Source of the DNA: Octopus vulgaris
Lineage: Eukaryota
Assembly (NCBI GenBank): GCA_951406725.2
Contig: OX597815.1
Coordinates: forward strand, 37,820,001-37,884,000
Length of the DNA stretch: 64,000 nucleotides
Direction: 5' to 3'
Made by a program: the position numbers and the translations under genes. Under the pieces are notes generated by a model, which saw only the letters and a program-made list of their open reading frames with translations, had not been told where the DNA came from and ran no database searches. Positions 3,981 through 63,337 of this stretch are shown piece by piece. Within the stretch, counting starts at the first letter, position 1. Every line of letters starts with the position of its first letter.

Positions 3981-5559
3981 TCACATATGAAATTTTGAAC
4001 TTGTGCTTTGAGGAGAATATAGTAAATACCTCGGTGGAAGTAAGGGTTAAGGGTGTACGTTTAAATCTCAGGGGTGCGATTTCTCATTGAAACGAAGCAT
4101 ACACTTTATTCCACTAAGGCTGTTTTTCGCGTAATTCCATTCCCTATAATAAAATTTATGCGCAGACAAAATCGCGTTGAATGCTGAAGGTTGAAAGTAA
4201 GTCTTGTACTATGGTCGATCCATACACGCTTTTCAATAGTTGTTTTCCTCGAAAGCCTTCAAATCACGATTCGTGTACACTGTAACTTCTTTCAATTATG
4301 TATAAAGAATAAAACCATATGTGTGTGTGGATGTGCGTGTTCTTTCTGTTGTTTCAGCCTTTGGGCCAAACCGTGCAGGACCAAACCCCGAAACGGTTTC
4401 AATCGACCAAGTCGATATCAGTAATTTTTGTTCATCTCTCATAAGGATACTATCAGTTTATAGATTGCCAAAGCACTAATTCACGATGATGTAAGCAAGC
4501 CAACACACACACACACATAAACACACACACGCACACGCACGCATGCACACACACACATACACACACATGAACACACACACACATATGCTTATATATACAT
4601 ATATGCATATATGTGTACAGGACGTGGGCTTCCTTGTATGTCTCCACTGCCCTGTTTTTGTTCCCAACTTTGACCCTCCATAAATCCTAAATTTTATTTT
4701 AGTATTTATCGGAGCAAATGTCTTTGAAGACTCATATTGTCGTTGAATGCTCGAAATGGGGAGTAGATAGACAGCCGACAACTGATGAAGGGTCCTTCCT
4801 CTGTGTTTACTTGTCCTATGTATTTCATGTTGTTTGCGCAGTTGGTGACATCCTGTACCCATATATGATTCCTTATTGAAGTGAGCGCACTAAATATGTA
4901 GCGTCAAACAAGAAATTCTTGCCACAGAGAGGACAATCCGCTGAAATGTAACGAAGATACCAGATAGAACTATTAAAACCCGGTGATTGACCAAACTTTA
5001 TCAACTAGGTACGGGGTACGGTGCGGTGAGATTTGAGCGCAGAAGGCAGAGAGCCAGTACGAATACAGCAAGGCGTACAGTCTGATATTTTGAGAACCAT
5101 CTTCGACTGAATGCATTTTGCATCATAGTCAACACCGAAGCAAAATAGATAATTTGATCATGGTGAGCACGGAATTCTATCCAACGTTCTATCGACTATC
5201 CTACTCCATTGCATTACTCCATGCCTGCATGTCTATGTTCGTGCGAATATGCGCGCGTACGCGTTTGTTGTTGTGTGTGTGTATGTGTGTGTCTGTGTGT
5301 TTGTGTTTGAAAATCCACATCTGCACAAGCACAGTAAGGCTATTAGAAAGGTAGAGAGTCTCATTTGTGCGCTTACACACAGTGATCAGTATCCCCAGTC
5401 CTCAAACCTACGTATTGATTTTCCTTCTCTTTTATAGAAATATATTTTTTCTTGATCAACTTGATCACTGTCGAGTACTCTCTCTCTTTCTCTTTCTCTT
5501 TCTCTCTCTCTCTTTCTCACACACACACATAAACGTGTACAATACTGATTCAGATAGAA

Positions 5560-5900
5560 TCGGGTGCTTGAAAAGACATGCACCAGGAAGGACTTATATT
5601 GGTTGCTCTATAAATCTGAAGCATCGCTTACGCAACGACTATTTATCCTTTAAATCAAGACATAGGATAGGCAGGACTTCTCTAGCCACGAAGATTTGGG
5701 AACTTAAGGATAACAATCTTAAATTCGATTTGAAATGGGACAACTTTATGGTCGCTAAACCGTATTCAAACACCAGATATAGGGTCAGACGTTGCTGCAT
5801 GGAGCTGTTTGAAATTTTAAAGAGATGAAATAGGGAAAATCTAATTAATAACAAACTAGACCTTCGTCTTTCTTGTATACATAAGGCTACCTTTAAGTAT
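5560..5900 (+). mobile_element. Penelope-like element GIY-YIG endonuclease remnant
   Basis: Translation TYIGCSINLKHRL...SFK...TSLATKIWELKDNNLKFDLKW...AKPY...CCMELFEI, then NLINNKLDLRLSCIH after a stop; resembles a PLE GIY-YIG C-terminus. Confidence 0.7.
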
Positions 5901-23648: not shown

Positions 23649-24318
23649 AAACTTCGAAAACCTAGTTTAGAGGGAGGATTTGTGTACAGTGATGTAATCT
23701 TGAATTAAAATATGTAAAGAGATAAGATTGGTTATGCGTGTATATTAAGACGCGGTCTGTATTTTTCGATGAAGAAAGTTTCTTCATCTAAGCGATCTTG
23801 TGGAGAAATTTTATCTTTGCACTGGTAAAAGACTTGTGGTGAAATTGTTTCATTGCACTTGTGGTGAAATTGTATCTTTGCACTGGGAAAGACTGTGAAA
23901 TTTGGTTTGGTGTTACCTTCAGATTTCTCTATATGTTCACTTCGAGGAATTTGCTTGTATTGCGGGAACCGGATTTGCTCTTTATGTAGAATGGTTCTTC
24001 GTCTCAAAGTCATACTGTCTGTCCATATAGTTTTGTCTTACAACCTGAGTATGTTATTACATGAATTAGGTTCTCAGAGGCACAACTGAACCTGGTTTTA
24101 ATTGTGAACCTCTCTCCTTGTTTGAAACGGAAATCCGAGCTTTCAAGTAGGAGCAGGCTTCACAGTTTGGGCGCACACATTTTTTAACCATTGGTTTCGT
24201 CGTTGTTTTGACTGCTATCTCTACCCTTAATTATAATTGCAATATTAATTATTACCTATAAGGTTTTTGAACCCATGTGGCAATATGATCGGTATTTTAA
24301 ATAACGATCTTATCCTCC

Positions 24319-24385: not shown

Positions 24386-25483
24386 CAGGTGTTGGACAAA
24401 ATAATGGAAACACGTAGCATCATAGCATCACAATTTTTTGATATATTATTAGTGTTGCTTAATATGTTTTGCTAAAATTGCTGTTTCTTTTCAGATATCA
24501 TTAGAAAAAGATAATTAAGATTCATTAAAATGACAAATCTGTTGGACTTTCAAAGAGATCAAATTGTTGGTACTCGGAAAGCAAGCGCTAGCGTAACGAA
24601 AAGAGCCGAAATGTTTGGTGTACCGACCAATACTGCCTTGCCGAAACAAAACTCGGGAAGAAAACCAAAACTTGCAGATAGAGAGCGTCGGATTCTTACG
24701 CGAATTGTTAGAAAGGAAAACAAAAGTACAGCTCTCACAATTATTGCAGAGCTTAATGACCACATCGACAACCCTGTTTTCACAAAACCTGTTCGCCGGA
24801 AGCTGCACAAAGTCAGATTTCATGGAAGGGTTGCAATCAGAAAGCCACTACTTTCAAAAACAAACGTTGCAAAGCGTTTAGAGTGGAGTAAAAACCTACA
24901 CAATGGGTCTCTAGAGCAGTGGAAGAATGTTATTTTCTCGGACGAATTAATCCTTTACTTTATTTCTGACAACTGGCCGGGTATGCTAGTGGAGACAGCC
25001 AAAAGAAGCATTTGATCCAGACTGCATTCTTCCAACTCTTAAACATGGATAAGGATCCGTAATGATCTGGTGGAGTTATATCTTGGAAATACTCCGACCC
25101 AATGATTTCACTTCATGGCAGAATTAATAGTCAAGACTATATAAGCATTTTATCTGATCAAATTCATGCTATGCTTGCGGAACTGTTTCCATAGGTAATG
25201 TTCTCGTGAAGTTGAACATATAATCTGGTCACCACAATCCACATATAGTGCAATTTAAAATAACAAGTAAGGAGTCGATATCCTCGACCATGATTACTAC
25301 AAGATTCGGAGACCGCTTTAGCTGAAAAATGAGCAAAAATTCCCTTGGAAACAACGAAAACTTTGTACGAGTCCATACCTCGTAGAATTCAAGCTGTAAT
25401 TACTACCAAAGGCAGCCCTATCGCATTTTAAAATAAATTCGTTTGAAATTTTAAGGCCTTTCCCTTATTTTGTCCAACCCCTC
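24386..25483 (+). mobile_element. Tc1-like DNA transposon with disrupted transposase
   Basis: TA|CAGGTGTTGGACAAAATAATGGAAA ... TTTCCCTTATTTTGTCCAACCCCTC|TA; ORF 24530-25015 has HTH start, SGRKPKL, RKPLLS and WKNVIFSDE, then frameshifts and stops. Confidence 0.92.
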
Positions 25484-29159: not shown

Positions 29160-30385
29160 TCATGTAATGTGTGCAGGAAAAAAGTACGAATAACGAGTAC
29201 ATGGAACACGAAGTATTCTTTTGAACAGCGAAAAACACAAATAGAAAACAAAACAAAACAACATAAAGAACGACACTTCATCAGTTGTTGGCTGTTTTTC
29301 TAGTCTCGCATTTCGAGCATTTAACAACAATAAACGTCTACTGGGGCAGAAACTTCTAAGGTCTTGTTTGTCTAGATATTCATTGTCATATGTCAGTCTA
29401 AGTAGGAGGCCCAGTTCCTTTGTGTTGACATTGCGGACCTCCACTTCGCTCTCGCTAATCATCCCCACACACTTCTCCACTGCAAAATCCTCGTCGATAG
29501 ATGGGTATAGGAATACAGCATCCATGCCACCCGCTACCACCAGAATTCAAAACGAACGACGAAACGAACATCTATGGGAGAATAGTAACTGGCCCAGATG
29601 AAAAGTTGGTATTTAAACATGTACAACAACAACAACAACAACAGGAGCGACAGCAATATTACGAACAGCAATAACCGCAGCAACAAGAACAACAACTACA
29701 CGAACGACAACAACAACCGTAACAACAAGAACAACATGAACGACAACAACAACACGAACAACTACAACCGCACCAACAGCAACAACAACAGCAGCAACAA
29801 CGGCAAAAACGAACACACGAACACACGAACACAAGCAACAGATACAAATACAAAAACAAAAACAGAGAAAAAGTCGAATACAACAACAACAACAACAACG
29901 GTAATAGGGGGAACGGGCACACAGACACACACAGATGGCATTAGGTACAAGGACACGAATAAAAGTAAGGTCATGGTTATCGTGGGGGAGAGTAAAGTTG
30001 AATGCAACACAATTCTTGGACAGTGAGTCAGCAGACTAGAAACAGAAAACACTGCTGCTAGGAACAGAAACAACAACCACAACCGGTTGCGGTGGAGAAG
30101 TGCTTAGAGATGATCAGCGAGAGCGAAGTGGAGTTCCGCAATGTCAACACAGAGGAACTGGTCCTCCTACTTAGACTGACATATGATAATGAATATCGAA
30201 ACAAGCATGACCTTAGAAGTTTCTTCCCCAGTAGACGTTTAAAAGGTAGACCAACCACAATTACGTCTATGGCTAGGAATACCCCTATAGAGAGATGGAG
30301 CGGATGGATCAGAGCCATGCGGACCCCACGCCGTAAACGAATATCAAGTAAAGAAAACAATCGCACATGCACTAGGAGCTAGTAT
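29160..30385. mobile_element. Penelope-like RT fragments in inverted arrangement around (AAC)n-rich spacer
   Basis: Minus ORF GMDAVFLYPSIDEDFAVEKCVGMISESEV... (PLE-type DxxxLYPSI motif) and plus ORF VEKCLEMISESEVEFRNVNTEEL.LLLRLTYDNEY are homologous. Confidence 0.65.
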
Positions 30386-30720: not shown

Positions 30721-32149
30721 TGAGGAAGACAACACTAGAAGGGCCAACAACATGAATACCCACCCTCTTGACACTCAGTTCTTCAACATATGTGACAAAT
30801 CTTACAACACGAGCCATATTTACCCACCAACACTACCCTTTAACAAACGGGTCTGTGAACACATGGAAGCACAATTCACTATACGTCACAAGGGGCCAAA
30901 GGTTTGCCACAGTTGAAGTCAGATTTGACACAGAGGAACGAACAAAGTGTATTCCACAAAATTTTATTTCCGGGTGATAAAAATAGAATTTTAAAATGTC
31001 CCCACTGAGATAGAAGCACGATGGTTGGTGTCAGCCATCTGCTGTAATTACGAAGAGGTAATTAACATCTTAGAAATTGCCCTCCTAGAGAAGCAAAACT
31101 GAGTAGGACACGCATTTGAGCGCTGATCCAAGCGGATCAATAGATGATCGAAAATGACCCAGAACTAATTAAACTGTGGGACGGCAGCTCCTTACATGTG
31201 GCCGATGAAGGCGGAAGATCACTTTGTGGCTGAGAAACCCACCTAAAAACTGACTGACCAACAAAACAGGAGCAACAACAACACAACAAAAACAGCAACA
31301 ACAAGAATAACAACAAAAAGAAAACACTACCGGCAAACCAGCGCTGAGGAAACAGCTACACGAACAGATGAAACAGCTTCACAAAACAACCAACCAGCCC
31401 AACCAATCAACACAACCTACATCAGAAGTAACACCATCACCACCATGAACAACCACTGCTACAGAAGTACCAAACTCTGAAAAGAGGGAAAAAGACTAAC
31501 CCCACGTCCCCAACAACCCGTGCATCACACCCCAACAGCCACCAACCGACTCCAACAACAGCAATTACATCAACATTAACACACTCACAAATCGACCCCA
31601 ATACCTTACCCTCCCATTTTCTGATTTCTCCGACATATCGTCTGATGATGTCAACACGGTCGAATGGCAAATGGCCATAGGGGGAAGAAGGAAAAGGGGG
31701 GTAAGAACAACCACTCAAGCACACAATGCAGAGAGATACACCACTCCCAACAACAAAACTCCCACACATAACAACAACACCAGCATCTACACTACAAACA
31801 TACATACACCAACAATGCTAACCGCGATCAACAGAATCAATGTGTACCTAATGCAATACTGACACGTCCGCACACTGACATGGCAGAAAACAGCTTCAAA
31901 ATAAACAACCACCTATACACAACACCACTACAACACATAAAAATAGTACACACCAGGCAAAACACACACAAATGAATAAAACCTCTCTACCCTAAAGCAG
32001 TAGGGAGATTTCAAAAACCTTTGTCTAAGAAAAACTATACAAAAATCTCCTTACAGAAACTGAGGACGAAAATCCCCAACTTTCGAACAGTGACTCTCCC
32101 CCATTTTCTGTTTTCTTTTTGTGTCTGAAACACAACTTTCGTCAGGTCC

Positions 32150-34945
32150 ATGCTCAGGATAGGTAGTATAAATGTGAGTGGCTTGGGATCGACTTGGAAA
32201 CAAGGTTGCCTGCTAAACGACATCACGTCACAAAATGTAGATATCATAGCCATCAGCGAAACCAAACTCTCCAACTCGCTGACCCTCCTGAACATGTTCG
32301 GCAGACATTTCGATATTTATGTTTCCCCGTGTCTGCCGAGAATGAGCGGTGGAGGTACTGCGGTGCTCTTTCGAAAGACTCTGGATCAGAAAGTAAAGGC
32401 AATATTCCTAGACCAGGAGAGAAGGATTGTCGTCTTGGATGTCGATAACAGTAACGAGTGTGCTTTCCGACTAATAACAGTTCCCTGGGAACGTCCCGAC
32501 CTTTACTTTAGTGAGGGGTTGGAATGCTACATTGGACAAACATTTAGACTATGTAGGTAGAGATACGAAGAGAAGGGGTTGCAAATGCCTCATAGTGCTG
32601 CTCAGACGTTTCCAAATGTCTGACAGCTACCGACTGGACTACCCGTATGTGCCAATGTGGACATGGACTAACCGCATCGCGTCGTCCAAATAGTTTTTAG
32701 ATAGAGTATTCTGTAGGACAGTGGATAGGGATAGTGTAGGTTGTCCACAGTTTCACATAGTCAGCTACACCGATCACAAATTCGCTTTGTTATCGCTTCA
32801 TATTCTTTTAGTGCCTTGCCGACCGGGTAAATATGTCTGAGGGTTCCATTTACTTGAAGCTGAACGCGTCGTTCCCGGAGCGACAGGCTTACAGAGACCG
32901 GGAATAGCACATTAGTTAAGAGGGCAGTAACGGGCGCTATTGTCAGTTATAAATGGTGGTTTGCCCTAAAGAGGGCAATCAAAGCAGAATCGGTTATGTA
33001 TAGCAAGGTTTTAGCGATAGATCGAAATAGAATAGAGGGAGACCTAGTGAAGAAATTATAAGAGGCACTTAGATGTGGTATCGCGTCCAACGTGCTGGAG
33101 GCGAGGTTGGCCCTTGACCAACACTTCAACGCCAAGCACGAAAGTTGCGTTGTCAGAGCTAAGATGCGTGCACTGAGAAACGAATGAATTGCACCCCCCT
33201 CCCCGAGAGGCCCAGGTGGCGAAGGCACAACAAGGCAACAAAGTCACCATTCGATCTTTTATGAATGAACAGGGGCGGGAATTGCTCGAGCCCGAAAGAA
33301 TGTGTGAGGTCTTACAGCAAGACATTGCTCGACTGTTCGGGACAACTGGTGGGTCAAAACACAGGGTAATGCCTATCTGCATGGCCTACCATGACTCTCG
33401 GCAAGAGAGGCAGAGTGTTGTGAAAGTTCCATTACGGCCGCTGATGTACGGAATGCGATCGTAGGCTGCGCGAGAGACAAGTCACTGGGCTTGAATGGTC
33501 TGTCCTATGAACTTTTATTGTCATATGTAAGACTTGTTTCGAGATGTCTTGGCAGCAGTCTATTGCAACTGGCAGCAAACCGGGGGTATCCCTAGTTTTG
33601 TGAGTCGAGGTGCGGTGACACTGCAAAAGAAAGATTCAAAGAAGTGGAACGTTATAGATAATTTCCAGCCCACCACTCTGCTCAACGCAGATTTGAAAAT
33701 TTTGGCCAAGGTGCTAGCCGAGAGGTTGGCGCTTGTCATTGAAAAACTGGTCGACAAGGCGGAAACATGCACCGTGCCGGGAAATATATCCATGACAACC
33801 TCCATCTCATGTCCTACATCATAGACAGGGTAGTTAAGGAACCTGGCATGGGTGGGATGCTGATCAAAAGCTGGATCAATTTGGATTAATCAAAAGGCTG
33901 GTTTCGAGCCAGTCTTCCGTGGTTGGATCGCTGCTTTATACAGCATCACTCCGTCGGTAGTTCGCGTAAATGGTCATCTATATAGACCATTTAACATCAC
34001 GCGTTCTGTCCGTCAAGGATGCCTCCTTTCGTCATGTTTTGACTCTATTGACTGCATGCATTGACTCTAGAGCCACTACTGCAGGAGCTGGCGACGCTGA
34101 GGGCCATCCTGCGAGAACTGGGATGCGAGAGAAGCGTGTCTGCATACGCAGACGATGCCACCATCACAGTGTCGATCCACAGACATATTTACCCGGTTGG
34201 CAAGACACGAAAAGAATACGAAGCGATAACAAAGCGAAAATTAACCCGGAAAAGGTAGTGGTGTTGCGACTCGGTACCTGGAGAAGCAAGCCCACGCAGT
34301 CCAACAGCGTCTCCATCGTGAAACTTTGGACCGACTGACCGGTTGAATTGCTGAATGTCTCGTTTGGTCCAGATCTCCAAATGAAGAAGAACTGGGACGA
34401 AATAACGAGTAGGGTGGCCACTCTCACCCAGCAACTGACCGAGATAAAGCTATCTCTAAAAGGTCGGAAGTGGTGGTATTGCGTACATCGCATCCATCAT
34501 TAACTACCATCAGGCCGTCATGCCTCGTCCTGACCCTGCATTCACGAAACTGAAACGCATATTCTTCCGCTTTTTGTGGGAGGGAGGCGTTCCGATGGTC
34601 AAGTGATCTATTTGCTGCTGCAAACAACCGCTAAATGGAGGACACGGTATACCGTAGTTGATGATGCGCAGACATGCACTGATACAGCGTCCTCTCCAGC
34701 GTTTCATGGATCAAGCAGAGACCGGGGCTTCGCGAAGGGTACATCGCGTGTCGCCATGTTCTCCAGTAACTCTGCTGTCCGGGATCAAACTTGTGCGTTC
34801 AATTCCACGAAGGCGTTCCATAGAGGATTAGTGGAGGGGTGGTGTGACGACGTTCTTGGGGAGACTCAAGGCGTCGACGAGGAGTACTTAACCCGCCTCT
34901 TCAGGACTACTTTTGGGCCAGGACCTATGGATAATTTGCACTGAA
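32150..34945 (+). mobile_element. L1/Tx1-like LINE ORF2 pseudogene (AP endonuclease plus RT)
   Basis: SINVSGL, DIIAISET and GGGTAVLF (APE); NFQPTTLLNADLKILAK, SVRQGC and SAYADD (RT); many frameshifts and stops. Confidence 0.9.
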
Positions 34946-51889: not shown

Positions 51890-52064
51890 CATCATTTATA
51901 TTATTTACATTCAACGGATATTTTTCCTCATCTTGTTTGCTTTTAACACAATGTTTCGGCTGATATACCCTCCAGCCTTTTTCAGGTGTCTTAGAGAAAT
52001 TTCGAACCTGGGTTCTCATTCCTAAGGTATTTTTTCAATGTTATTGTTGTTGTTGTTGTTGTTG

Positions 52065-52135
<71 letters not shown>

Positions 52136-53066
52136 ATTATTATTATTATTATTATATTCGTGATACCTTTATACGCTGGCCCTACCAAGAAGATGCCCAA
52201 GTGCTATTAGATCATGTCAACTCAATAAAGCCATCCATACATTTCAAAATGGAAAAGGAAAAAGACAATCAGCTGGCATTCCTGGACGTATTAATAACAT
52301 GCACCAAGTATGGATTGAAGACATCCGTATACGGCAAACCGTCCTTTACTGGACGATACCTCAACTTCAATTCCCACCATGCATACAGTCTAAAGAGAGG
52401 GATTACTCAGTGCCTAAAACATCGTGCAAAAATATAGGTAGCGATCGTGATACACACCACGAAGAAATGATGAAGCTCAACGATTTGTTAAGCACCAACT
52501 ACACCAAAAGTGTACTATCCTCTCTGATTGTGAAGAAGAGAGAGGCTGAGACCATTAAACTGTCCACAGTCTGTCTACTCTATGTGAAAGGCCTCTCCGA
52601 AAAGATACAAAGATATGCGGCCTATATGACATCAGGACAGTATTCAAGAGTAATACAACACTTCGGAAATATCTCCTTCAGGTAAAACAACTGATAGAAG
52701 AGAATATGACCAAAGACTGCGAGCACTCCATCCCAAGCAGCTGAGGTAGGTTATACAAAGGCGAAACATTCCGCCCCCTCAAAATAAGGATAGACGAACA
52801 TAGCAAAGCTGTGACACGAGGAGATATTGATCAAACGGGTATAGCTGATCATGTGTGGAAAAATGGAGACCACCTCCACGTGTGGGATGAAGTTAAAATA
52901 ATAGACAAAGAACACAAGTGGAAAATACGAAAACTAAAAGAAGCAGCTCATATGCTAGGACACAGCTGCCTCCTAATCAGACCGAGTGCAGATATGAGCA
53001 GCATATGGGAACCGGTATTAAGGAAGGATAGGAAAATATTAGATTTATAAGCCTTAAAATTCACTC

Positions 53067-55791: not shown

Positions 55792-56492
55792 GTACATGCA
55801 TATTCAGCATATTCAGATTATAATAGAAGATAACATACATAGATAATATGACTGATATGCCCTAAATTCCCAGTTTGCAAAATGCGTGAATATATCATAT
55901 ATCTCAATATCTAAGAAATTGCATAATATATTACGTTGATCTCTTAAATGTTCATTAGTTCATTGTTTTACGAATATTTTGTTTTCGATAAATTAAATTT
56001 GTCTTTACCTTACTGAATATGACCGTCATGTATTAAGCCTGTGTCTCTATTCAATGACAATTACCATGTACAAAAAGCAGTTAGTGAATGTTGTTCTCTT
56101 GTTATGGTTTAGTTCGTTTAAAAAATCTAGTTATGCTGTTCAATGTCGATTTTTAAAAGATGCTGATGTATATATATATATATATATATATATGTATGAA
56201 TATATATATATATATATAATTAATTAATAAGGGTGAGAGAATTAGATACTAATTTAATAGTATATCTATTCAACACCAAGTGGCCTAGTGCTACGAGAAA
56301 CCTGGATTATTATAATATTTTATAACATATTATAATATTTTTACAAAATAAATATAAGAGAGTGGTCACTATATGGCTCACTCTAGCACCAGTTAATCCA
56401 AAAGGTTTCAACCACGAAAATACATGTTTCCCATGAAAGTCAGTACGATTGTTAGTTCACACGGACAGGGCAAATAAAAAATAACAAAAATA

Positions 56493-56588
56493 CAGATTAT
56501 TTTGGGACAATTGTTTCGCTATTAATGAATTAAATGTAATTTTACTTACAAAAAAATCCATTTGTAGCTCGTCAGCCAAAACTATCTG
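56493..56588 (-). ncRNA. Type I hammerhead ribozyme (inverted copy 1)
   Basis: Reverse complement of the motif at 57272. Confidence 0.88.
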
Positions 56589-57027
56589 GATGAAATCCAC
56601 TCAATCACACGCCAGATTTTACCATAACGATAAATACGCATGTGGTTCAATTGATTACATCCGACGTTATAATTCAAATGCCCCAACTAACAGCGCGCCA
56701 AACTTTCACGGAAAACAAATACAGCATTTAGAAATAAATGCAGCATAATTATAATTAATTAATAAGGGTGAGAGAATTAGATACTAATTTAATAGTATAT
56801 CTATTCAACACCAAGTGGCCTAGTGCTACGAGAAACCTGGATTATTATAATATTTTATAACATATTATAATATTTTTACAAAATAAATATAAGAGAGTGG
56901 TCACTATATGGCTCACTCTAGCACCAGTTAATCCAAAAGGTTTCAACCACGAAAATACATGTTTCCCATGAAAGTCAGTACGATTGTTAGTTCACACGGA
57001 CAGGGCAAATAAAAAATAACAAAAATA

Positions 57028-57124
57028 CAGATTATTTTGGGACAATTGTTTCGCTATTAATGAATTAAATGTAATTTTACTTACAAAAAAAATCCATTTG
57101 TAGCTCGTCAGCCAAAACTATCTG
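57028..57124 (-). ncRNA. Type I hammerhead ribozyme (inverted copy 2)
   Basis: Reverse complement of the motif at 57272. Confidence 0.88.
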
Positions 57125-57271
57125 GATGTCCCAAAATAATCTGTATTTTTGTGAAAGTTTGGCGCGCTGTTAGTTGGGGCATTTGAATTATAACGTCGGA
57201 TGTAATCAATTGAACCACATGCGTATTTATCGTTATGGTAAAATCTGGCGTGTGATTGAGTGGATTTCATC

Positions 57272-57367
57272 CAGATAGTTTTGGCTGACGAGCTACAAAT
57301 GGATTTTTTTGTAAGTAAAATTACATTTAATTCATTAATAGCGAAACAATTGTCCCAAAATAATCTG
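57272..57367 (+). ncRNA. Type I hammerhead ribozyme, predicted cleavage after C57354
   Basis: CAGATAGTTTTGG [CTGACGA] GCTA...TAGC [GAAA] CAATTG [TC] CCAAAATAATCTG: stem I TTTTGG/CCAAAA extended by CAGAT/ATCTG, stem II GCTA/TAGC, palindromic stem III ACAATTGT, GUC triplet. Confidence 0.9.
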
Positions 57368-57806
57368 TATTTTTGTTATTTTTTATTTGCCCTGTCCGTG
57401 TGAACTAACAATCGTACTGACTTTCATGGGAAACATGTATTTTCGTGGTTGAAACCTTTTGGATTAACTGGTGCTAGAGTGAGCCATATAGTGACCACTC
57501 TCTTATATTTATTTTGTAAAAATATTATAATATGTTATAAAATATTATAATAATCCAGGTTTCTCGTAGCACTAGGCCACTTGGTGTTGAATAGATATAC
57601 TATTAAATTAGTATCTAATTCTCTCACCCTTATTAATTAATTATAATTATGCTGCATTTATTTCTAAATGCTGTATTTGTTTTCCGTGAAAGTTTGGCGC
57701 GCTGTTAGTTGGGGCATTTGAATTATAACGTCGGATGTAATCAATTGAACCACATGCGTATTTATCGTTATGGTAAAATCTGGCGTGTGATTGAGTGGAT
57801 TTCATC

Positions 57807-57903
57807 CAGATAGTTTTGGCTGACGAGCTACAAATGGATTTTTTTTGTAAGTAAAATTACATTTAATTCATTAATAGCGAAACAATTGTCCCAAAATAAT
57901 CTG
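57807..57903 (+). ncRNA. Type I hammerhead ribozyme, cleavage after 57890
   Basis: Same motif as 57272. Confidence 0.9.
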
Positions 57904-58342
57904 TATTTTTGTTATTTTTTATTTGCCCTGTCCGTGTGAACTAACAATCGTACTGACTTTCATGGGAAACATGTATTTTCGTGGTTGAAACCTTTTGGAT
58001 TAACTGGTGCTAGAGTGAGCCATATAGTGACCACTCTCTTATATTTATTTTGTAAAAATATTATAATATGTTATAAAATATTATAATAATCCAGGTTTCT
58101 CGTAGCACTAGGCCACTTGGTGTTGAATAGATATACTATTAAATTAGTATCTAATTCTCTCACCCTTATTAATTAATTATAATTATGCTGCATTTATTTC
58201 TAAATGCTGTATTTGTTTTCCGTGAAAGTTTGGCGCGCTGTTAGTTGGGGCATTTGAATTATAACGTCGGATGTAATCAATTGAACCACATGCGTATTTA
58301 TCGTTATGGTAAAATCTGGCGTGTGATTGAGTGGATTTCATC

Positions 58343-58439
58343 CAGATAGTTTTGGCTGACGAGCTACAAATGGATTTTTTTTGTAAGTAAAATTACATTT
58401 AATTCATTAATAGCGAAACAATTGTCCCAAAATAATCTG
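58343..58439 (+). ncRNA. Type I hammerhead ribozyme, cleavage after 58426
   Basis: Same motif as 57272. Confidence 0.9.
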
Positions 58440-58878
58440 TATTTTTGTTATTTTTTATTTGCCCTGTCCGTGTGAACTAACAATCGTACTGACTTTCATG
58501 GGAAACATGTATTTTCGTGGTTGAAACCTTTTGGATTAACTGGTGCTAGAGTGAGCCATATAGTGACCACTCTCTTATATTTATTTTGTAAAAATATTAT
58601 AATATGTTATAAAATATTATAATAATCCAGGTTTCTCGTAGCACTAGGCCACTTGGTGTTGAATAGATATACTATTAAATTAGTATCTAATTCTCTCACC
58701 CTTATTAATTAATTATAATTATGCTGCATTTATTTCTAAATGCTGTATTTGTTTTCCGTGAAAGTTTGGCGCGCTGTTAGTTGGGGCATTTGAATTATAA
58801 CGTCGGATGTAATCAATTGAACCACATGCGTATTTATCGTTATGGTAAAATCTGGCGTGTGATTGAGTGGATTTCATC

Positions 58879-58975
58879 CAGATAGTTTTGGCTGACGAGC
58901 TACAAATGGATTTTTTTTGTAAGTAAAATTACATTTAATTCATTAATAGCGAAACAATTGTCCCAAAATAATCTG
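58879..58975 (+). ncRNA. Type I hammerhead ribozyme, cleavage after 58962
   Basis: Same motif as 57272. Confidence 0.9.
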
Positions 58976-59414
58976 TATTTTTGTTATTTTTTATTTGCCC
59001 TGTCCGTGTGAACTAACAATCGTACTGACTTTCATGGGAAACATGTATTTTCGTGGTTGAAACCTTTTGGATTAACTGGTGCTAGAGTGAGCCATATAGT
59101 GACCACTCTCTTATATTTATTTTGTAAAAATATTATAATATGTTATAAAATATTATAATAATCCAGGTTTCTCGTAGCACTAGGCCACTTGGTGTTGAAT
59201 AGATATACTATTAAATTAGTATCTAATTCTCTCACCCTTATTAATTAATTATAATTATGCTGCATTTATTTCTAAATGCTGTATTTGTTTTCCGTGAAAG
59301 TTTGGCGCGCTGTTAGTTGGGGCATTTGAATTATAACGTCGGATGTAATCAATTGAACCACATGCGTATTTATCGTTATGGTAAAATCTGGCGTGTGATT
59401 GAGTGGATTTCATC

Positions 59415-59510
59415 CAGATAGTTTTGGCTGACGAGCTACAAATGGATTTTTTTGTAAGTAAAATTACATTTAATTCATTAATAGCGAAACAATTGTCCCA
59501 AAATAATCTG
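59415..59510 (+). ncRNA. Type I hammerhead ribozyme, cleavage after 59497
   Basis: Same motif as 57272. Confidence 0.9.
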
Positions 59511-59949
59511 TATTTTTGTTATTTTTTATTTGCCCTGTCCGTGTGAACTAACAATCGTACTGACTTTCATGGGAAACATGTATTTTCGTGGTTGAAACCT
59601 TTTGGATTAACTGGTGCTAGAGTGAGCCATATAGTGACCACTCTCTTATATTTATTTTGTAAAAATATTATAATATGTTATAAAATATTATAATAATCCA
59701 GGTTTCTCGTAGCACTAGGCCACTTGGTGTTGAATAGATATACTATTAAATTAGTATCTAATTCTCTCACCCTTATTAATTAATTATAATTATGCTGCAT
59801 TTATTTCTAAATGCTGTATTTGTTTTCCGTGAAAGTTTGGCGCGCTGTTAGTTGGGGCATTTGAATTATAACGTCGGATGTAATCAATTGAACCACATGC
59901 GTATTTATCGTTATGGTAAAATCTGGCGTGTGATTGAGTGGATTTCATC

Positions 59950-60046
59950 CAGATAGTTTTGGCTGACGAGCTACAAATGGATTTTTTTTGTAAGTAAAAT
60001 TACATTTAATTCATTAATAGCGAAACAATTGTCCCAAAATAATCTG
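59950..60046 (+). ncRNA. Type I hammerhead ribozyme, cleavage after 60033
   Basis: Same motif as 57272. Confidence 0.9.
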
Positions 60047-60485
60047 TATTTTTGTTATTTTTTATTTGCCCTGTCCGTGTGAACTAACAATCGTACTGAC
60101 TTTCATGGGAAACATGTATTTTCGTGGTTGAAACCTTTTGGATTAACTGGTGCTAGAGTGAGCCATATAGTGACCACTCTCTTATATTTATTTTGTAAAA
60201 ATATTATAATATGTTATAAAATATTATAATAATCCAGGTTTCTCGTAGCACTAGGCCACTTGGTGTTGAATAGATATACTATTAAATTAGTATCTAATTC
60301 TCTCACCCTTATTAATTAATTATAATTATGCTGCATTTATTTCTAAATGCTGTATTTGTTTTCCGTGAAAGTTTGGCGCGCTGTTAGTTGGGGCATTTGA
60401 ATTATAACGTCGGATGTAATCAATTGAACCACATGCGTATTTATCGTTATGGTAAAATCTGGCGTGTGATTGAGTGGATTTCATC

Positions 60486-60582
60486 CAGATAGTTTTGGCT
60501 GACGAGCTACAAATGGATTTTTTTTGTAAGTAAAATTACATTTAATTCATTAATAGCGAAACAATTGTCCCAAAATAATCTG
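60486..60582 (+). ncRNA. Type I hammerhead ribozyme, cleavage after 60569
   Basis: Same motif as 57272. Confidence 0.9.
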
Positions 60583-60725
60583 TATTTTTGTTATTTTTTA
60601 TTTGCCCTGTCCGTGTGAACTAACAATCGTACTGACTTTCATGGGAAACATGTATTTTCGTGGTTGAAACCTTTTGGATTAACTGGTGCTAGAGTGAGCC
60701 ATATAGTGACCACTCTCTTATATTT

Positions 60726-60773
<48 letters not shown>

Positions 60774-61488: not shown

Positions 61489-61565
<77 letters not shown>

Positions 61566-61651
61566 AAGGATGAAAAGTAACACACGAGTTGATATATGTG
61601 AAAAAACAAGTCAAGATAGAAAATGCTAAAATAATTTTATAAAGAATATTT

Positions 61652-61688
61652 CAGTACCGGTTTCAGTCATTTGAGACGTTTTCAACTG
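61652..61688 (-). ncRNA. Minimal hammerhead-like motif in pLTR (U3-A8 variant)
   Basis: Minus strand CAG TTGAAAA CGTC TCAAAT GACT GAA ACCGGT A CTG. Confidence 0.55.
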
Positions 61689-62672
61689 TAACGATTAAAT
61701 AATTAAATTTAGAAAAATTAAAAGAAAAGTTTTTTTAAAAGAATATTTGTATAATGTTCAAATATAAGTGGCATTTTCCTTGTTTCTGCCTTTCTCTGTC
61801 TCTCTTTGTTTACACTTGTGGGTTCGAGGTCCTTGTGAATTCTTGGTAGGGAAGAAGAAGAAGGATGAAGAGAAGGCGGGGAGGCTTCATCGTTGAGAGG
61901 GTTTCCTCTCAACAATGAAGCCTTCGACATCATCCTCCAAAACATACCTCTGCTAAAGAAAGACTACAGAATGAACATAATCCTCCAAACATACACGATC
62001 ATAAAAAGCAAGAGACAGCCTAAATCTATGAAAAGTCTCCTAACACAAGCCCGAATTCGCTCATCAACACAGAAGCCGAGAGTAAAAGAATGTGGAAGAC
62101 CCAACTGCAGGATATGCGATTATCTAATTGAGGGATCAGAGTTCTCTTTCAAACAGGGACAACGGTTCACAGTGAAAAGCAACTTCACATGTGCTTCGGA
62201 GAACCTGATATACACACTAACCTGCTCTGGGTGTCAAGAGCAATACATAGACCAAACAAAAAATAGTTTGCGTAAAAGAATGGCCCTGCACAGATCCCAG
62301 ATAAAAATTCCCCAAAACAGAAAAAATAGCATTCAGCCAACACATAGATATTTGCGCCAACAACAAAACACCAAGCTTCGGGATTTTCCCCCTCTACCAA
62401 TTCAGGGACGATTCAACCTCGAGCCAACGAATAAGTAAAGAAACACTCTTTATTACAAAATACAGGCCCCTTCTGAACGGGTCTACGACAAACGATATAT
62501 CCACCTCGGTTTTAGAGTAACACAAATACACACGCAAATATTACATTCCTAAGAATCCATTAAAAATCAGCCCCAATCACAGCTATAACCCATAACGTGC
62601 CAACTTTAAGTCATACAACGCCACACTACTTCCACGCATTCATATTCTCCCTTCTCTTTCTTCTTCTTCTTC

Positions 62673-62747
<75 letters not shown>

Positions 62748-63201
62748 TTCTTCTTCTTCTTCTTCCACTTCTTCCTCTTCTCCCCTTTCTACTTCCTAGC
62801 TTTATCACTAATGCTTTTTAGTATAACACCTACGCAAATTCTATAAACAAACCTTTCAATAGAAATATTCTCATGAATTGAACAGCAACTGCTAGCCGCC
62901 ACTGACCAATCAAAATACGACAATCAAGGCACTTCCAAATTTCCTCCCCCTTCTCCTCATCCTTCTTCTTCTTCTTCTTCTTCTTCTTCTTCTTCTTCTT
63001 CTTCTTCTTCTTCTTCTTCTTCTTCTTCTTCTTCTTCTTCCCTACCAAGAATTCACAAGGACCTCGAACCCACAAGTGTAAACAAGAGAGACAGAGAAAA
63101 GCAGAAACAAAGAAAATGCCACTTATATTTGAACATTATACAAATATTCTTTTAAAAAAACTTTTCTTTTAATTTTTCTAAATTTAATTATTTAATCTTT
63201 A

Positions 63202-63238
63202 CAGTTGAAAAGGTCTCAAATGATTGAAACCGGTACTG
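63202..63238 (+). ncRNA. Minimal hammerhead-like motif in pLTR (U3-A8 variant)
   Basis: CAG TTGAAAA GGTC TCAAAT GATT GAA ACCGGT A CTG. Confidence 0.55.
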
Positions 63239-63288
63239 AAATGTTCTTTATAAAATTATTTTACCATTTTCTATCTTGACTTGTTTTT

Positions 63289-63337
<49 letters not shown>

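Follow-up and report, generated by a model that had tools for sequence, protein, structure and literature searches.

A hammerhead-bearing, non-coding unit of 536 nt has jumped hundreds of times in the octopus genome, as judged from the sequences analysed here, and its hammerheads are real. The reading that we favour, to which we give a probability of roughly two in three, is that the unit is a non-LTR retrozyme, a young non-autonomous retroelement that would depend in trans on a GIY-YIG Penelope-like element (PLE) for its movement, and that its arrays arose during insertion itself, by rolling reverse transcription of what was probably a circle. Mobilisation of the hammerhead element by a PLE is almost certain, the writing of arrays at insertion from a continuous template is very likely, and a circle is the probable form of that template.

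Structure of the window locus

The element was found in a stretch of 64,000 nucleotides of Octopus vulgaris DNA (hereafter the window), where an earlier note had described a tandem array at 56215..60726. An Octopus host is also indicated by a GPCR of the window that falls in one cluster with an O. bimaculoides protein at 90% identity. Tandem units with hammerheads are indeed present there, with the period of 535-536 nt that had been given, but they do not form a plain array: the locus is a head-to-head pair in which a minus arm (914 nt, two hammerheads) and a plus arm (3,575 nt, seven hammerheads) are joined by a 22-nt filler, the whole being inserted within (TA)n (Table 1). The flanking (TA)n described on both sides was found again at 56169-56218 and 60726-60770, and the copies are nearly identical as had been stated, since the six full plus units differ by a single T in a T-run. 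Likewise, no ORF is present, the longest stop-free frame of the tandem unit being 48 aa on the plus strand and 69 aa on the minus strand.

The count of nine ribozyme cores (CTGACGA...GAAA-CAATTG-TC) was correct and the seven cut positions predicted on the plus strand matched exactly; however, the other two cores lie on the minus strand, in the inverted arm, so the nine ribozymes are never on a single transcript. The 130-nt tail is present only at the 56215..56344 end of the locus. Direct terminal repeats flanking an internal region, as in LTR architecture, were looked for and none were found. The G+C content of the 536-nt monomer is 170/536. TRF, which is limited to periods of up to 500, made no call on the window array.

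Table 1. Features of the octopus insertion in window coordinates; position 1 of the unit is the first base after the cleavage site.
Feature	Position	Strand
(TA)n target microsatellite, left flank	56169..56214	
Inverted arm of 914 nt between unit position 449 and fixed end A (291), with one full unit	56215..57128	-
'Tail', 130 nt between end B (~161) and end A (291); contains TCACCCTTAT	56215..56344	-
Type I hammerhead, minus arm, predicted cut at 56506	56500..56581	-
Type I hammerhead, minus arm, predicted cut at 57041	57035..57117	-
22-nt filler where the arms invert, a copy of the region around unit positions 1-21 (template switch)	57129..57150	+
Plus arm of 3,575 nt between unit position 332 and fixed end B (156), with six full units	57151..60725	+
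Type I hammerhead 1, predicted cut after 57354	57279..57360	+
Hammerhead 2, predicted cut after 57890	57814..57896	+
Hammerhead 3, predicted cut after 58426	58350..58432	+
Hammerhead 4, predicted cut after 58962	58886..58968	+
Hammerhead 5, predicted cut after 59497	59422..59503	+
Hammerhead 6, predicted cut after 60033	59957..60039	+
Hammerhead 7, predicted cut after 60569	60493..60575	+
536-nt reference monomer (32% GC) between successive cuts; predicted circular RNA	57891..58426	+
(TA)n target microsatellite, right flank	60726..60770	

Conservation of the hammerhead ribozyme

A type I hammerhead was recognised in all nine units of the window, and its core was intact in 215 of 222 copies from 56 young loci. 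In hammerhead 1, stem I consists of UUUUGG/CCAAAA extended by CAGAU/AUCUG, and stem II is long; the earlier statement that all three stems can be closed holds with the reservation that stem III is only 2 bp long, with a palindromic AAUU as its loop. Of the stem cells in 45 sequences, 97.5% pair, and six stem I pairs were altered on both sides. Moreover, subfamilies that are about 70-75% identical have kept both the core and stem I. The pattern CTGANGA-N30-80-GAAACAATTGTC produced 2,461 matches in the genome, a count that takes in a few other families, compared to 15 for the reversed control, and none in the metagenomic and viral contigs searched.

The ribozyme region folded with a z of -5.0, and the unit folded as a circle gave z values, from 25 shuffles, of -7.7 for the sense strand and -5.6 for the antisense strand; as both strands of the circle fold, folding alone says little on the strand. 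The search with hammerhead models that had been advised gave nothing, as Rfam returned 0 matches at the gathering score in the window, and the 31 matches obtained at E<=10 between 56000 and 62500 included no hammerhead family; the Rfam models are probably defeated by the long stem II.

Dispersal and age of the family

A search with the monomer across the genome revealed that the family is dispersed. A total of 834 exact junctions between end A and (TA)n were counted, with 0 in the control, and the window locus is one of at least 834 young insertions. Scoring of the best 39 of 984 candidate loci yielded 237 matches; since these 39 loci were chosen as the best matches to the full unit, they are biased to long, young copies. 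An older subfamily is 74% identical to the young one, a third is represented by one locus only (L109/L138), and the non-coding unit is common to all three related subfamilies examined. Being dispersed and non-coding, with one type I hammerhead per unit and compensatory changes in stem I, the element fits the retrozyme reading proposed from the window.

The 44 fixed variants comprise 12 A>G, 8 G>A and 7 T>C changes, which are unpolarised and too few for a claim of RNA editing. None of the 23 runs listed for the unit is on record as RNA. Four runs were analysed as contigs, with an RNA status that is a guess; in X13, one contig of 565 nt comprises about one unit plus a k-mer overlap, which fits a circle and a homogeneous tandem equally well and is therefore given no weight here.

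Two fixed ends, one of each per classified inverted insertion

The insertions have two kinds of outer end, each at a fixed position of the unit, with 130 nt between them. When 73 arms were scored strictly, 31 ended at 287-291 (end A) and 33 at 156-161 (end B). Inverted pairs accounted for 38 of 58 young insertions, and all 36 of these that could be classified at both ends combined one A with one B, an outcome with a probability of 0.5^36 if the ends were independent. Inverted copies of the older subfamily, whose tail is about 100 nt, comprised 12 AB, one doubtful AA and four unclassed cases. In 18 loci picked by end A alone, BLAST detected an opposite B arm in 10 and a second A in none.

Every A or B end displayed runs into a TA or AT-rich repeat. 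Target duplications are mostly unreadable within (TA)n, and an automatic search flagged short duplications in 6 of 56 loci; apparently real short direct duplications were observed at L036, L045, L049 and L052. Head-to-head junctions show mostly an overlap of 0-6 nt or a short filler, and template switches were seen in the window filler and at L037, L045 and L061. As a control we analyzed an active Neptune-type PLE of the same genome, with a 784-aa RT and GIY-YIG ORF, whose two ends (19 short and 14 long) are separated by 34 nt and occur one of each kind in the three loci showing both.

Haplotypes, array lengths and the nature of the template

At 17 polymorphic sites, A and B arms showed 0 of 392 differences within 31 loci, compared to 3,445 of 11,860 (29%) between loci; in L037, one unit of a different haplotype was outvoted in the arm-majority test. 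The cut site was crossed about 242 times; of 102 arms, a single one stops 10 nt or less from it, compared to 4.0 expected, and the junctions were unscarred at the scissile bond in 240 of 240 cases. Inner ends of young arms are uniform round the unit (KS p=0.90), whereas those of the older subfamily are not (p=0.026), with 6 of 50 near the cut where 3.1 were expected. Lengths of 27 consecutive A arms (range 35 to 2,349 nt) fit an exponential with a mean of 640 nt and a CV of 1.02 (p=0.73). The suggestion that the array arose by rolling reverse transcription is supported by the inversion, the two fixed ends and the single haplotype per locus.

The best surviving alternative retains the same element and the same two-site priming by a PLE, but takes an uncut linear multimer as the template, with the ribozyme being slow or acting at another step. 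We consider it rather unlikely, despite the fact that scarless junctions, randomly truncated arms and haplotype sharing would be expected from a homogeneous source array as well, and that two RNAs of one source locus could also yield arms of the same haplotype. Copying of a linear multimer would only let arrays shrink at each generation, yet the longest young arm reaches 6,810 nt (about 13 units). Changes specific to a source unit should also recur in both daughter arms, but 78 of 85 within-locus variants were singletons, and among the seven found in several units only one, at site 341 of L054, spans both arms. L054 itself speaks for a multi-unit template: one of its arms mixes intact cores with five consensus-breaking cores (CTGAAAA), a mixture not obtainable from a monomer circle. 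In addition, an anole PLE mainly used uncleaved RNA in vitro (PMC11167929), and among nine Xenopus retrozyme dimers one was cleaved and eight were not (10.64898/2026.07.22.740005); the conservation of the core and stem I across the diverged subfamilies points the other way.

Much less probable is growth of the array after insertion, with a PLE first integrating a monomer or dimer and unequal crossover or slippage adding units later, as proposed in print for unequal crossover (10.64898/2026.07.22.740005). The mosaic of two to three haplotypes in L054 could come from recombination, and one variant of L040 is common to adjacent units; nevertheless, multi-unit variants are rare (7/85) and six of the seven are not adjacent blocks, and later growth would need to be immediate in the window, whose arms show no substitution among 11 passes. 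It is also at odds with arm lengths that form a single exponential and with an older subfamily that is shorter than the young one (longest arm of 1,425 nt, from loci taken with just 1.5-kb flanks). Building of the array without a circle, by repeated template jumps on linear, ribozyme-cut monomers, is largely refuted already and very improbable, because the stops expected at the cut are nearly absent, scars are missing and the haplotype mixing expected from intermolecular jumps is rare, even though template switches do occur.

Search for a coding partner

The earlier note had reasoned that a unit always abutting a PLE ORF would be a multimerised pseudo-LTR (pLTR), and no such ORF abuts the unit in any locus examined. 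Stop-free frames of these loci contained no RT and GIY-YIG ORF inside the unit. Matches of tblastn near arrays (L035, L064, L138, L143, L150 and L157) lie outside the fixed ends, with (TA)n or other DNA in between in those that were read, and none of the 18 end-A loci had a match. An ORF-linked unit was not found in the family of the neighbouring PLE, a second Neptune-type copy (L035), in other GAAACAATTGTC families (L134, L135, L139 and L140) or at 13 end-A loci without a listed hammerhead. With a profile of the three subfamilies, nhmmer gave no match at E<=1 in two Neptune-type families and eight other stretches, and the sole likeness to the active Neptune family was TCACCCTTAT near end A (BLAST E 0.79).

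That the unit consists of such pLTRs, namely 5'-truncated copies of an autonomous coding PLE, is scarcely credible: its ends, tail, target and inversion are as in PLEs, and a pLTR origin is plausible given that Xenopus retrozymes are related to pLTRs (10.64898/2026.07.22.740005), but up to 13 units per arm are joined directly to one another, PLE matches stay outside the fixed ends and the three subfamilies share the non-coding unit.

Proposed mechanism and significance

In the rolling-circle reading that we prefer, the array would be transcribed, probably by Pol II, as three T5-8 runs in the sense strand make Pol III unlikely. The hammerheads would release 536-nt monomers to be ligated into circles, as suggested by the conserved structure and by the coral, mussel and axolotl retrozymes. 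The PLE protein would nick both strands of (TA)n, which is the observed target, with a spacing of about 10 nt suggested by the few short duplications. One nick would prime at site A (~291) and the other at site B (~160), giving the observed rule of one end of each kind. The two cDNAs would be copied from one haplotype, and probably from a single molecule, passing the cleavage site repeatedly before stopping at random; this pattern is observed in the arms and suggests a circular template. Finally, the two cDNA ends would be joined head to head, as in the junctions observed.

A more specific version, in which a PLE-type RT dimer works on one ribozyme-made circle from two starts 130 nt apart, one per nick and both rolling, is put forward tentatively and is somewhat more doubtful than not. 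If true, hundreds of genomic copies would record retrozyme arrays as rolling-circle products, and the inverted-repeat-plus-one-tail structure of PLEs would reflect the obligatory use of both starts in each event.

The retrozyme class and its PLE link are already in print; our literature search found no description of the octopus family or its insertion anatomy. In animal retrozymes, both the identity of the helper and the way in which arrays arise are still proposals, the latter being ascribed to multi-unit cDNA from a circle (PMC7761336) or to later unequal crossover (10.64898/2026.07.22.740005). How PLEs acquire inverted copies and a one-sided tail is an unresolved question according to PMC8557442; two starts were revealed by the first in vitro PLE system, where they were not tied to the two nicks (PMC11167929). 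The octopus family combines youth and high copy number with near invariance; its two ends are readily distinguished thanks to the long tail, and it follows a strict rule of one A, one B, one haplotype and no stop at the cut. Its 536-nt unit is a ready substrate for the existing PLE assay, and a compact RNA circle directing multi-copy integration into (TA)n could interest builders of RT-based gene-insertion tools.

Comparison with known systems

Like the octopus unit, the animal non-LTR retrozymes of coral, mussel and axolotl (PMC7229834, PMC7761336; vertebrate survey in 10.64898/2026.07.22.740005) are non-coding tandems of low GC with no LTR and with one type I hammerhead per unit, which has a 2-bp stem III and a tetraloop; their circle, multi-unit cDNA and PLE helper are proposals. 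The octopus monomer of 536 nt compares with 150-450 in those elements; its length had been noted as greater than that of the few-hundred-nt monomers, an overstatement in that it falls within the 51-972 bp of 10.64898/2026.07.22.740005. The octopus retrozyme shows head-to-head inversion and two fixed ends, while its circle and cleavage are predicted here from sequence alone. The word 'inverted' has 0 occurrences in the main text of PMC7229834, and according to PMC7761336 the retrozyme repeats are without a motif pointing to a helper.

GIY-YIG PLEs (Neptune, Naiad and Poseidon; PMC8557442, PMC11167929) share with the octopus element partial tandems, an adjacent inverted 5'-truncated copy, a one-ended tail, an AT-rich or (TA)n target, two internal starts of reverse transcription and a hammerhead near the end. 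In contrast, the octopus unit has no ORF, no detectable homology to the PLEs compared, a tail of 130 nt in the young and about 100 nt in the older subfamily instead of 30-40, and a full hammerhead with a long stem II instead of a minimal one. Non-autonomous Chlamys PLEs such as MRC1 (PMC8557442) are, like the octopus unit, non-coding, multicopy head-to-tail and PLE-made. The Chlamys elements generally resemble their autonomous family at the 3' end, and N-terminal-EN PLEs are without canonical hammerheads according to PMC8557442, whereas the octopus unit has a hammerhead and no parent found among the PLEs compared.

In L1 twin priming, two primers on one RNA give rise to a 5' inversion joined by microhomology, and the second priming site is variable. 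In the octopus element, by contrast, both sites are fixed, the longer arm can arise from either of them, and each arm is multimeric.

Anatomy of the window locus

The locus consists of two arms in inverted orientation, both with the ribozyme sense directed outwards. In the earlier note it was described as a single array of nine hammerheads; seven of these do lie on the plus strand, at exactly the cut sites proposed and with the proposed period of 535-536 nt, but the other two lie on the minus strand. One T is the sole difference among the six full plus units of the array, and both arms are fixed for 50G>A (9/9) and 401C>T (8/8).

Features of the window. Unit positions are numbered from the hammerhead cleavage site; ends A and B are the two fixed outer ends of insertions. 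LINE-like and Tc1-like frames among the mobile-element fragments were judged by eye.
Feature	Position	Strand	Remarks
(TA)n flank	left of 56215 and right of 60725		both sides of locus
Inverted arm	56215-57128	-	outer end at unit position 291 (end A)
Filler, 22 nt	between 56215-57128 and 57151-60725 arms
Plus arm	57151-60725	+	outer end at unit position 156 (end B)
Neptune-type Penelope-like element (PLE) copy	61558-63298		inverted, 5'-truncated, within (TA)n; tailed end left, untailed end right
GIY-YIG fragment of Neptune-type copy	61869-62496
Rhodopsin-family GPCR, intronless, 371 aa	10443-11555	-	clusters with Octopus bimaculoides protein
Mobile-element fragment, PLE-like RT or GIY-YIG	23744-24206	-	tblastn support
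Mobile-element fragment, PLE-like RT or GIY-YIG	51964-53050	+	tblastn support
Other mobile-element fragment	5355-5828	+
Other mobile-element fragment	29160-30382
Other mobile-element fragment	32129-34944
Other mobile-element fragment	24515-25015

The hammerhead motif

By direct reading, the motif in the window reads as a type I hammerhead, with a stem I of UUUUGG/CCAAAA that continues beyond an internal loop into another helix, a core of CUGAcGA and GAAA, a long stem II starting GCUA/UAGC, and a 2-bp stem III closing a palindromic AAUU loop; an Rfam search of the window did not find a hammerhead. When 45 sequences representing three subfamilies were aligned, 97.5% of 990 cells paired as this structure requires, compared with 29-42% for slid controls. 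Six pairs were changed on both sides, every one in stem I, which amounts to a handful of independent events because the sequences are related. In this alignment, selected on the core pattern, the unconstrained core position varied among C, A, G and T and the remaining core was invariant. Four loci of other repeat families elsewhere in the genome (L134, L135, L136 and L139) carry a possible hammerhead ending in GAAACAATTGTC, with a different long stem II.

The family in the genome

A search of the genome (2.8 Gb, 227 contigs) with the unit yielded 984 candidates, 39 of which were scored and contained 237 matches. The hammerhead pattern occurred 2,461 times versus 15 for controls. End A joined exactly to TATA was found 834 times versus 0 for the control. 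Two older subfamilies, at about 74% and 70% identity, yielded 2,307 and 2,441 candidates, respectively. Retrozyme sequence was present in runs under four organism labels. Sequencing run X13, under a third label, has one 565-nt contig over window positions 57173-57737, about one unit plus the k-mer overlap, and two runs from the same study had next to none of the retrozyme's words. A literature search found no paper on an octopus retrozyme, and look-ups by sequence and by place returned nothing; supplements, Repbase or Dfam may already hold the family. The window element is a real, new family within a known class, and its interest lies in what its insertions reveal, not in its identity.

Two-ended inverted insertions

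The window together with 38 fetched loci supplied 73 arms, of which 31 ended at unit positions 287-291 (end A), 33 at 156-161 (end B) and 9 elsewhere. For the young subfamily we classed 58 insertions at 56 loci, taking a broader end-B range of 150-190 since alignments extend into the TA tract. Thirty-six were inverted A+B pairs and 2 were inverted with one end unclassed; the others were single arms (8 A, 9 B and 2 unclassed) apart from 1 three-piece case, and no AA or BB insertion occurred among the 58. The 30 older loci gave 12 AB, 1 AA, 4 unclassed inverted and 13 single, the sole AA case having its second piece, at 81%, about 300 nt away. When 18 loci were picked by end A only, an opposite B arm was present in 10 and a short B stub was seen by eye in 2, 5 were single and 1 ran off the fetched stretch; none showed a second A arm. 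Inversion points mostly had either an overlap of 0-6 nt (28/39) or a short insert. Two-ended inverted retrozyme insertions were not found described in the literature searched.

At unit positions of about 160-185, just beyond end B, the young subfamily has gained a palindromic insert of about 22 nt, which explains most of the growth of the tail (the stretch between ends B and A) from about 100 to 130 nt; both end motifs are unchanged. Locus L052 is a single A arm with a direct duplication exceeding 30 nt at its flanks; 5 nt separate the arm's inner end from the cleavage site.

The template of insertion

Haplotypes were compared at 31 two-arm loci over 17 sites polymorphic across loci, using the arm majority and masking AT-rich and end regions. 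The A and B arms of a locus differed in 0/392 comparisons, and arms of different loci in 3,445/11,860, with 756/930 pairs differing somewhere. Inner ends of young loci were spread uniformly round the unit (p=0.90), and arm lengths at the first 27 end-A junctions on one contig (C1) ranged from 35 to 2,349 nt and fitted an exponential (p=0.73). There were about 242 passes over the cleavage site, and a stop within 10 nt of this site was seen in 1/102 arms. Readable junctions numbered 240: 234 were exact, 5 bore a substitution in stem I and 1 had gained an A in the A-run, with no alteration of the scissile bond. These unscarred passes, together with the shared arm haplotypes and random stops, show that the template ran unbroken over the cut site, nearly always with a single haplotype.

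A circular template, the predicted 536-nt circle, explains both the continuity and the single haplotype, and lets arrays grow back in every generation. Most of the template observations would also be explained by an uncut linear multimer; 10.64898/2026.07.22.740005 and PMC11167929 warn that cleavage of such RNAs can be slow, and two loci speak against a pure monomer circle. In one arm of L054 (G000:C3:179746.9-179753.7 kb) intact (CTGACGA) and broken (CTGAAAA) cores are interleaved, almost alternating, a pattern that a multi-unit template or subsequent recombination would give. L037 contains one foreign unit, differing from the remaining locus at about 10 sites, which is a switch between two RNA haplotypes.

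A private deletion is common to all 13 passes of L054 that cover site 213. Within arrays, 78 variants were singletons and 7 were shared. Repeated substitutions occurred in non-adjacent units at L141 (site 247, 4/13) and L145 (site 361, 2/5), as if the same template base had been misread over repeated passes.

A Neptune-type control and candidate partner

The Neptune-type copy in the window, which has a degenerate minimal hammerhead (core TTGAAAA), belongs to an abundant active family with identical 784-aa frames. These match RT and GIY-YIG, the latter scoring slightly below the Pfam cutoff, and have an upstream Cys motif that PMC8557442 assigns to Neptune and Nematis. The family has two end positions, separated by 34 nt and represented by 19 and 14 ends, with one end of each kind in 3/3 loci showing both, and it supplies an in-genome control for two-ended insertion. 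At L130:418-4046 and L131, a 446-aa frame (no Pfam match) overlaps the following 784-aa RT and GIY-YIG frame. This arrangement recurs in many identical copies and suggests either a two-ORF design or a programmed frameshift.

This family has the same target and architecture as the retrozyme, and both contain the 10-mer TCACCCTTAT, which lies close to end A and is largely kept in 3/3 retrozyme subfamilies; no homology was found beyond TCACCCTTAT, and the family is a candidate partner only. The possibility that the unit always adjoins a PLE ORF was not borne out, as no arm enters one at the loci tested.

Comparison with known systems

The retrozyme reading put forward in the earlier note holds: the octopus element agrees with animal non-LTR retrozymes (PMC7229834, PMC7761336) in the features that can be tested. 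A 2026 preprint (10.64898/2026.07.22.740005), which sampled no molluscs and discusses array growth after insertion, uses Xenopus data on co-occurrence and on homology to pLTRs to argue that retrozymes originate from PLEs. PMC8557442 describes as marks of PLEs a truncated copy lying alongside in inverted orientation, a one-sided tail of 30-40 bp and insertion into (TA)n, and PMC11167929 reports that an anole PLE in vitro nicks both strands and initiates at two internal RNA sites bounding the tail. The marks at the ends and inversions of retrozyme insertions are those that PMC8557442 describes for PLEs; the retrozyme inserts like a PLE, yet is no autonomous PLE.
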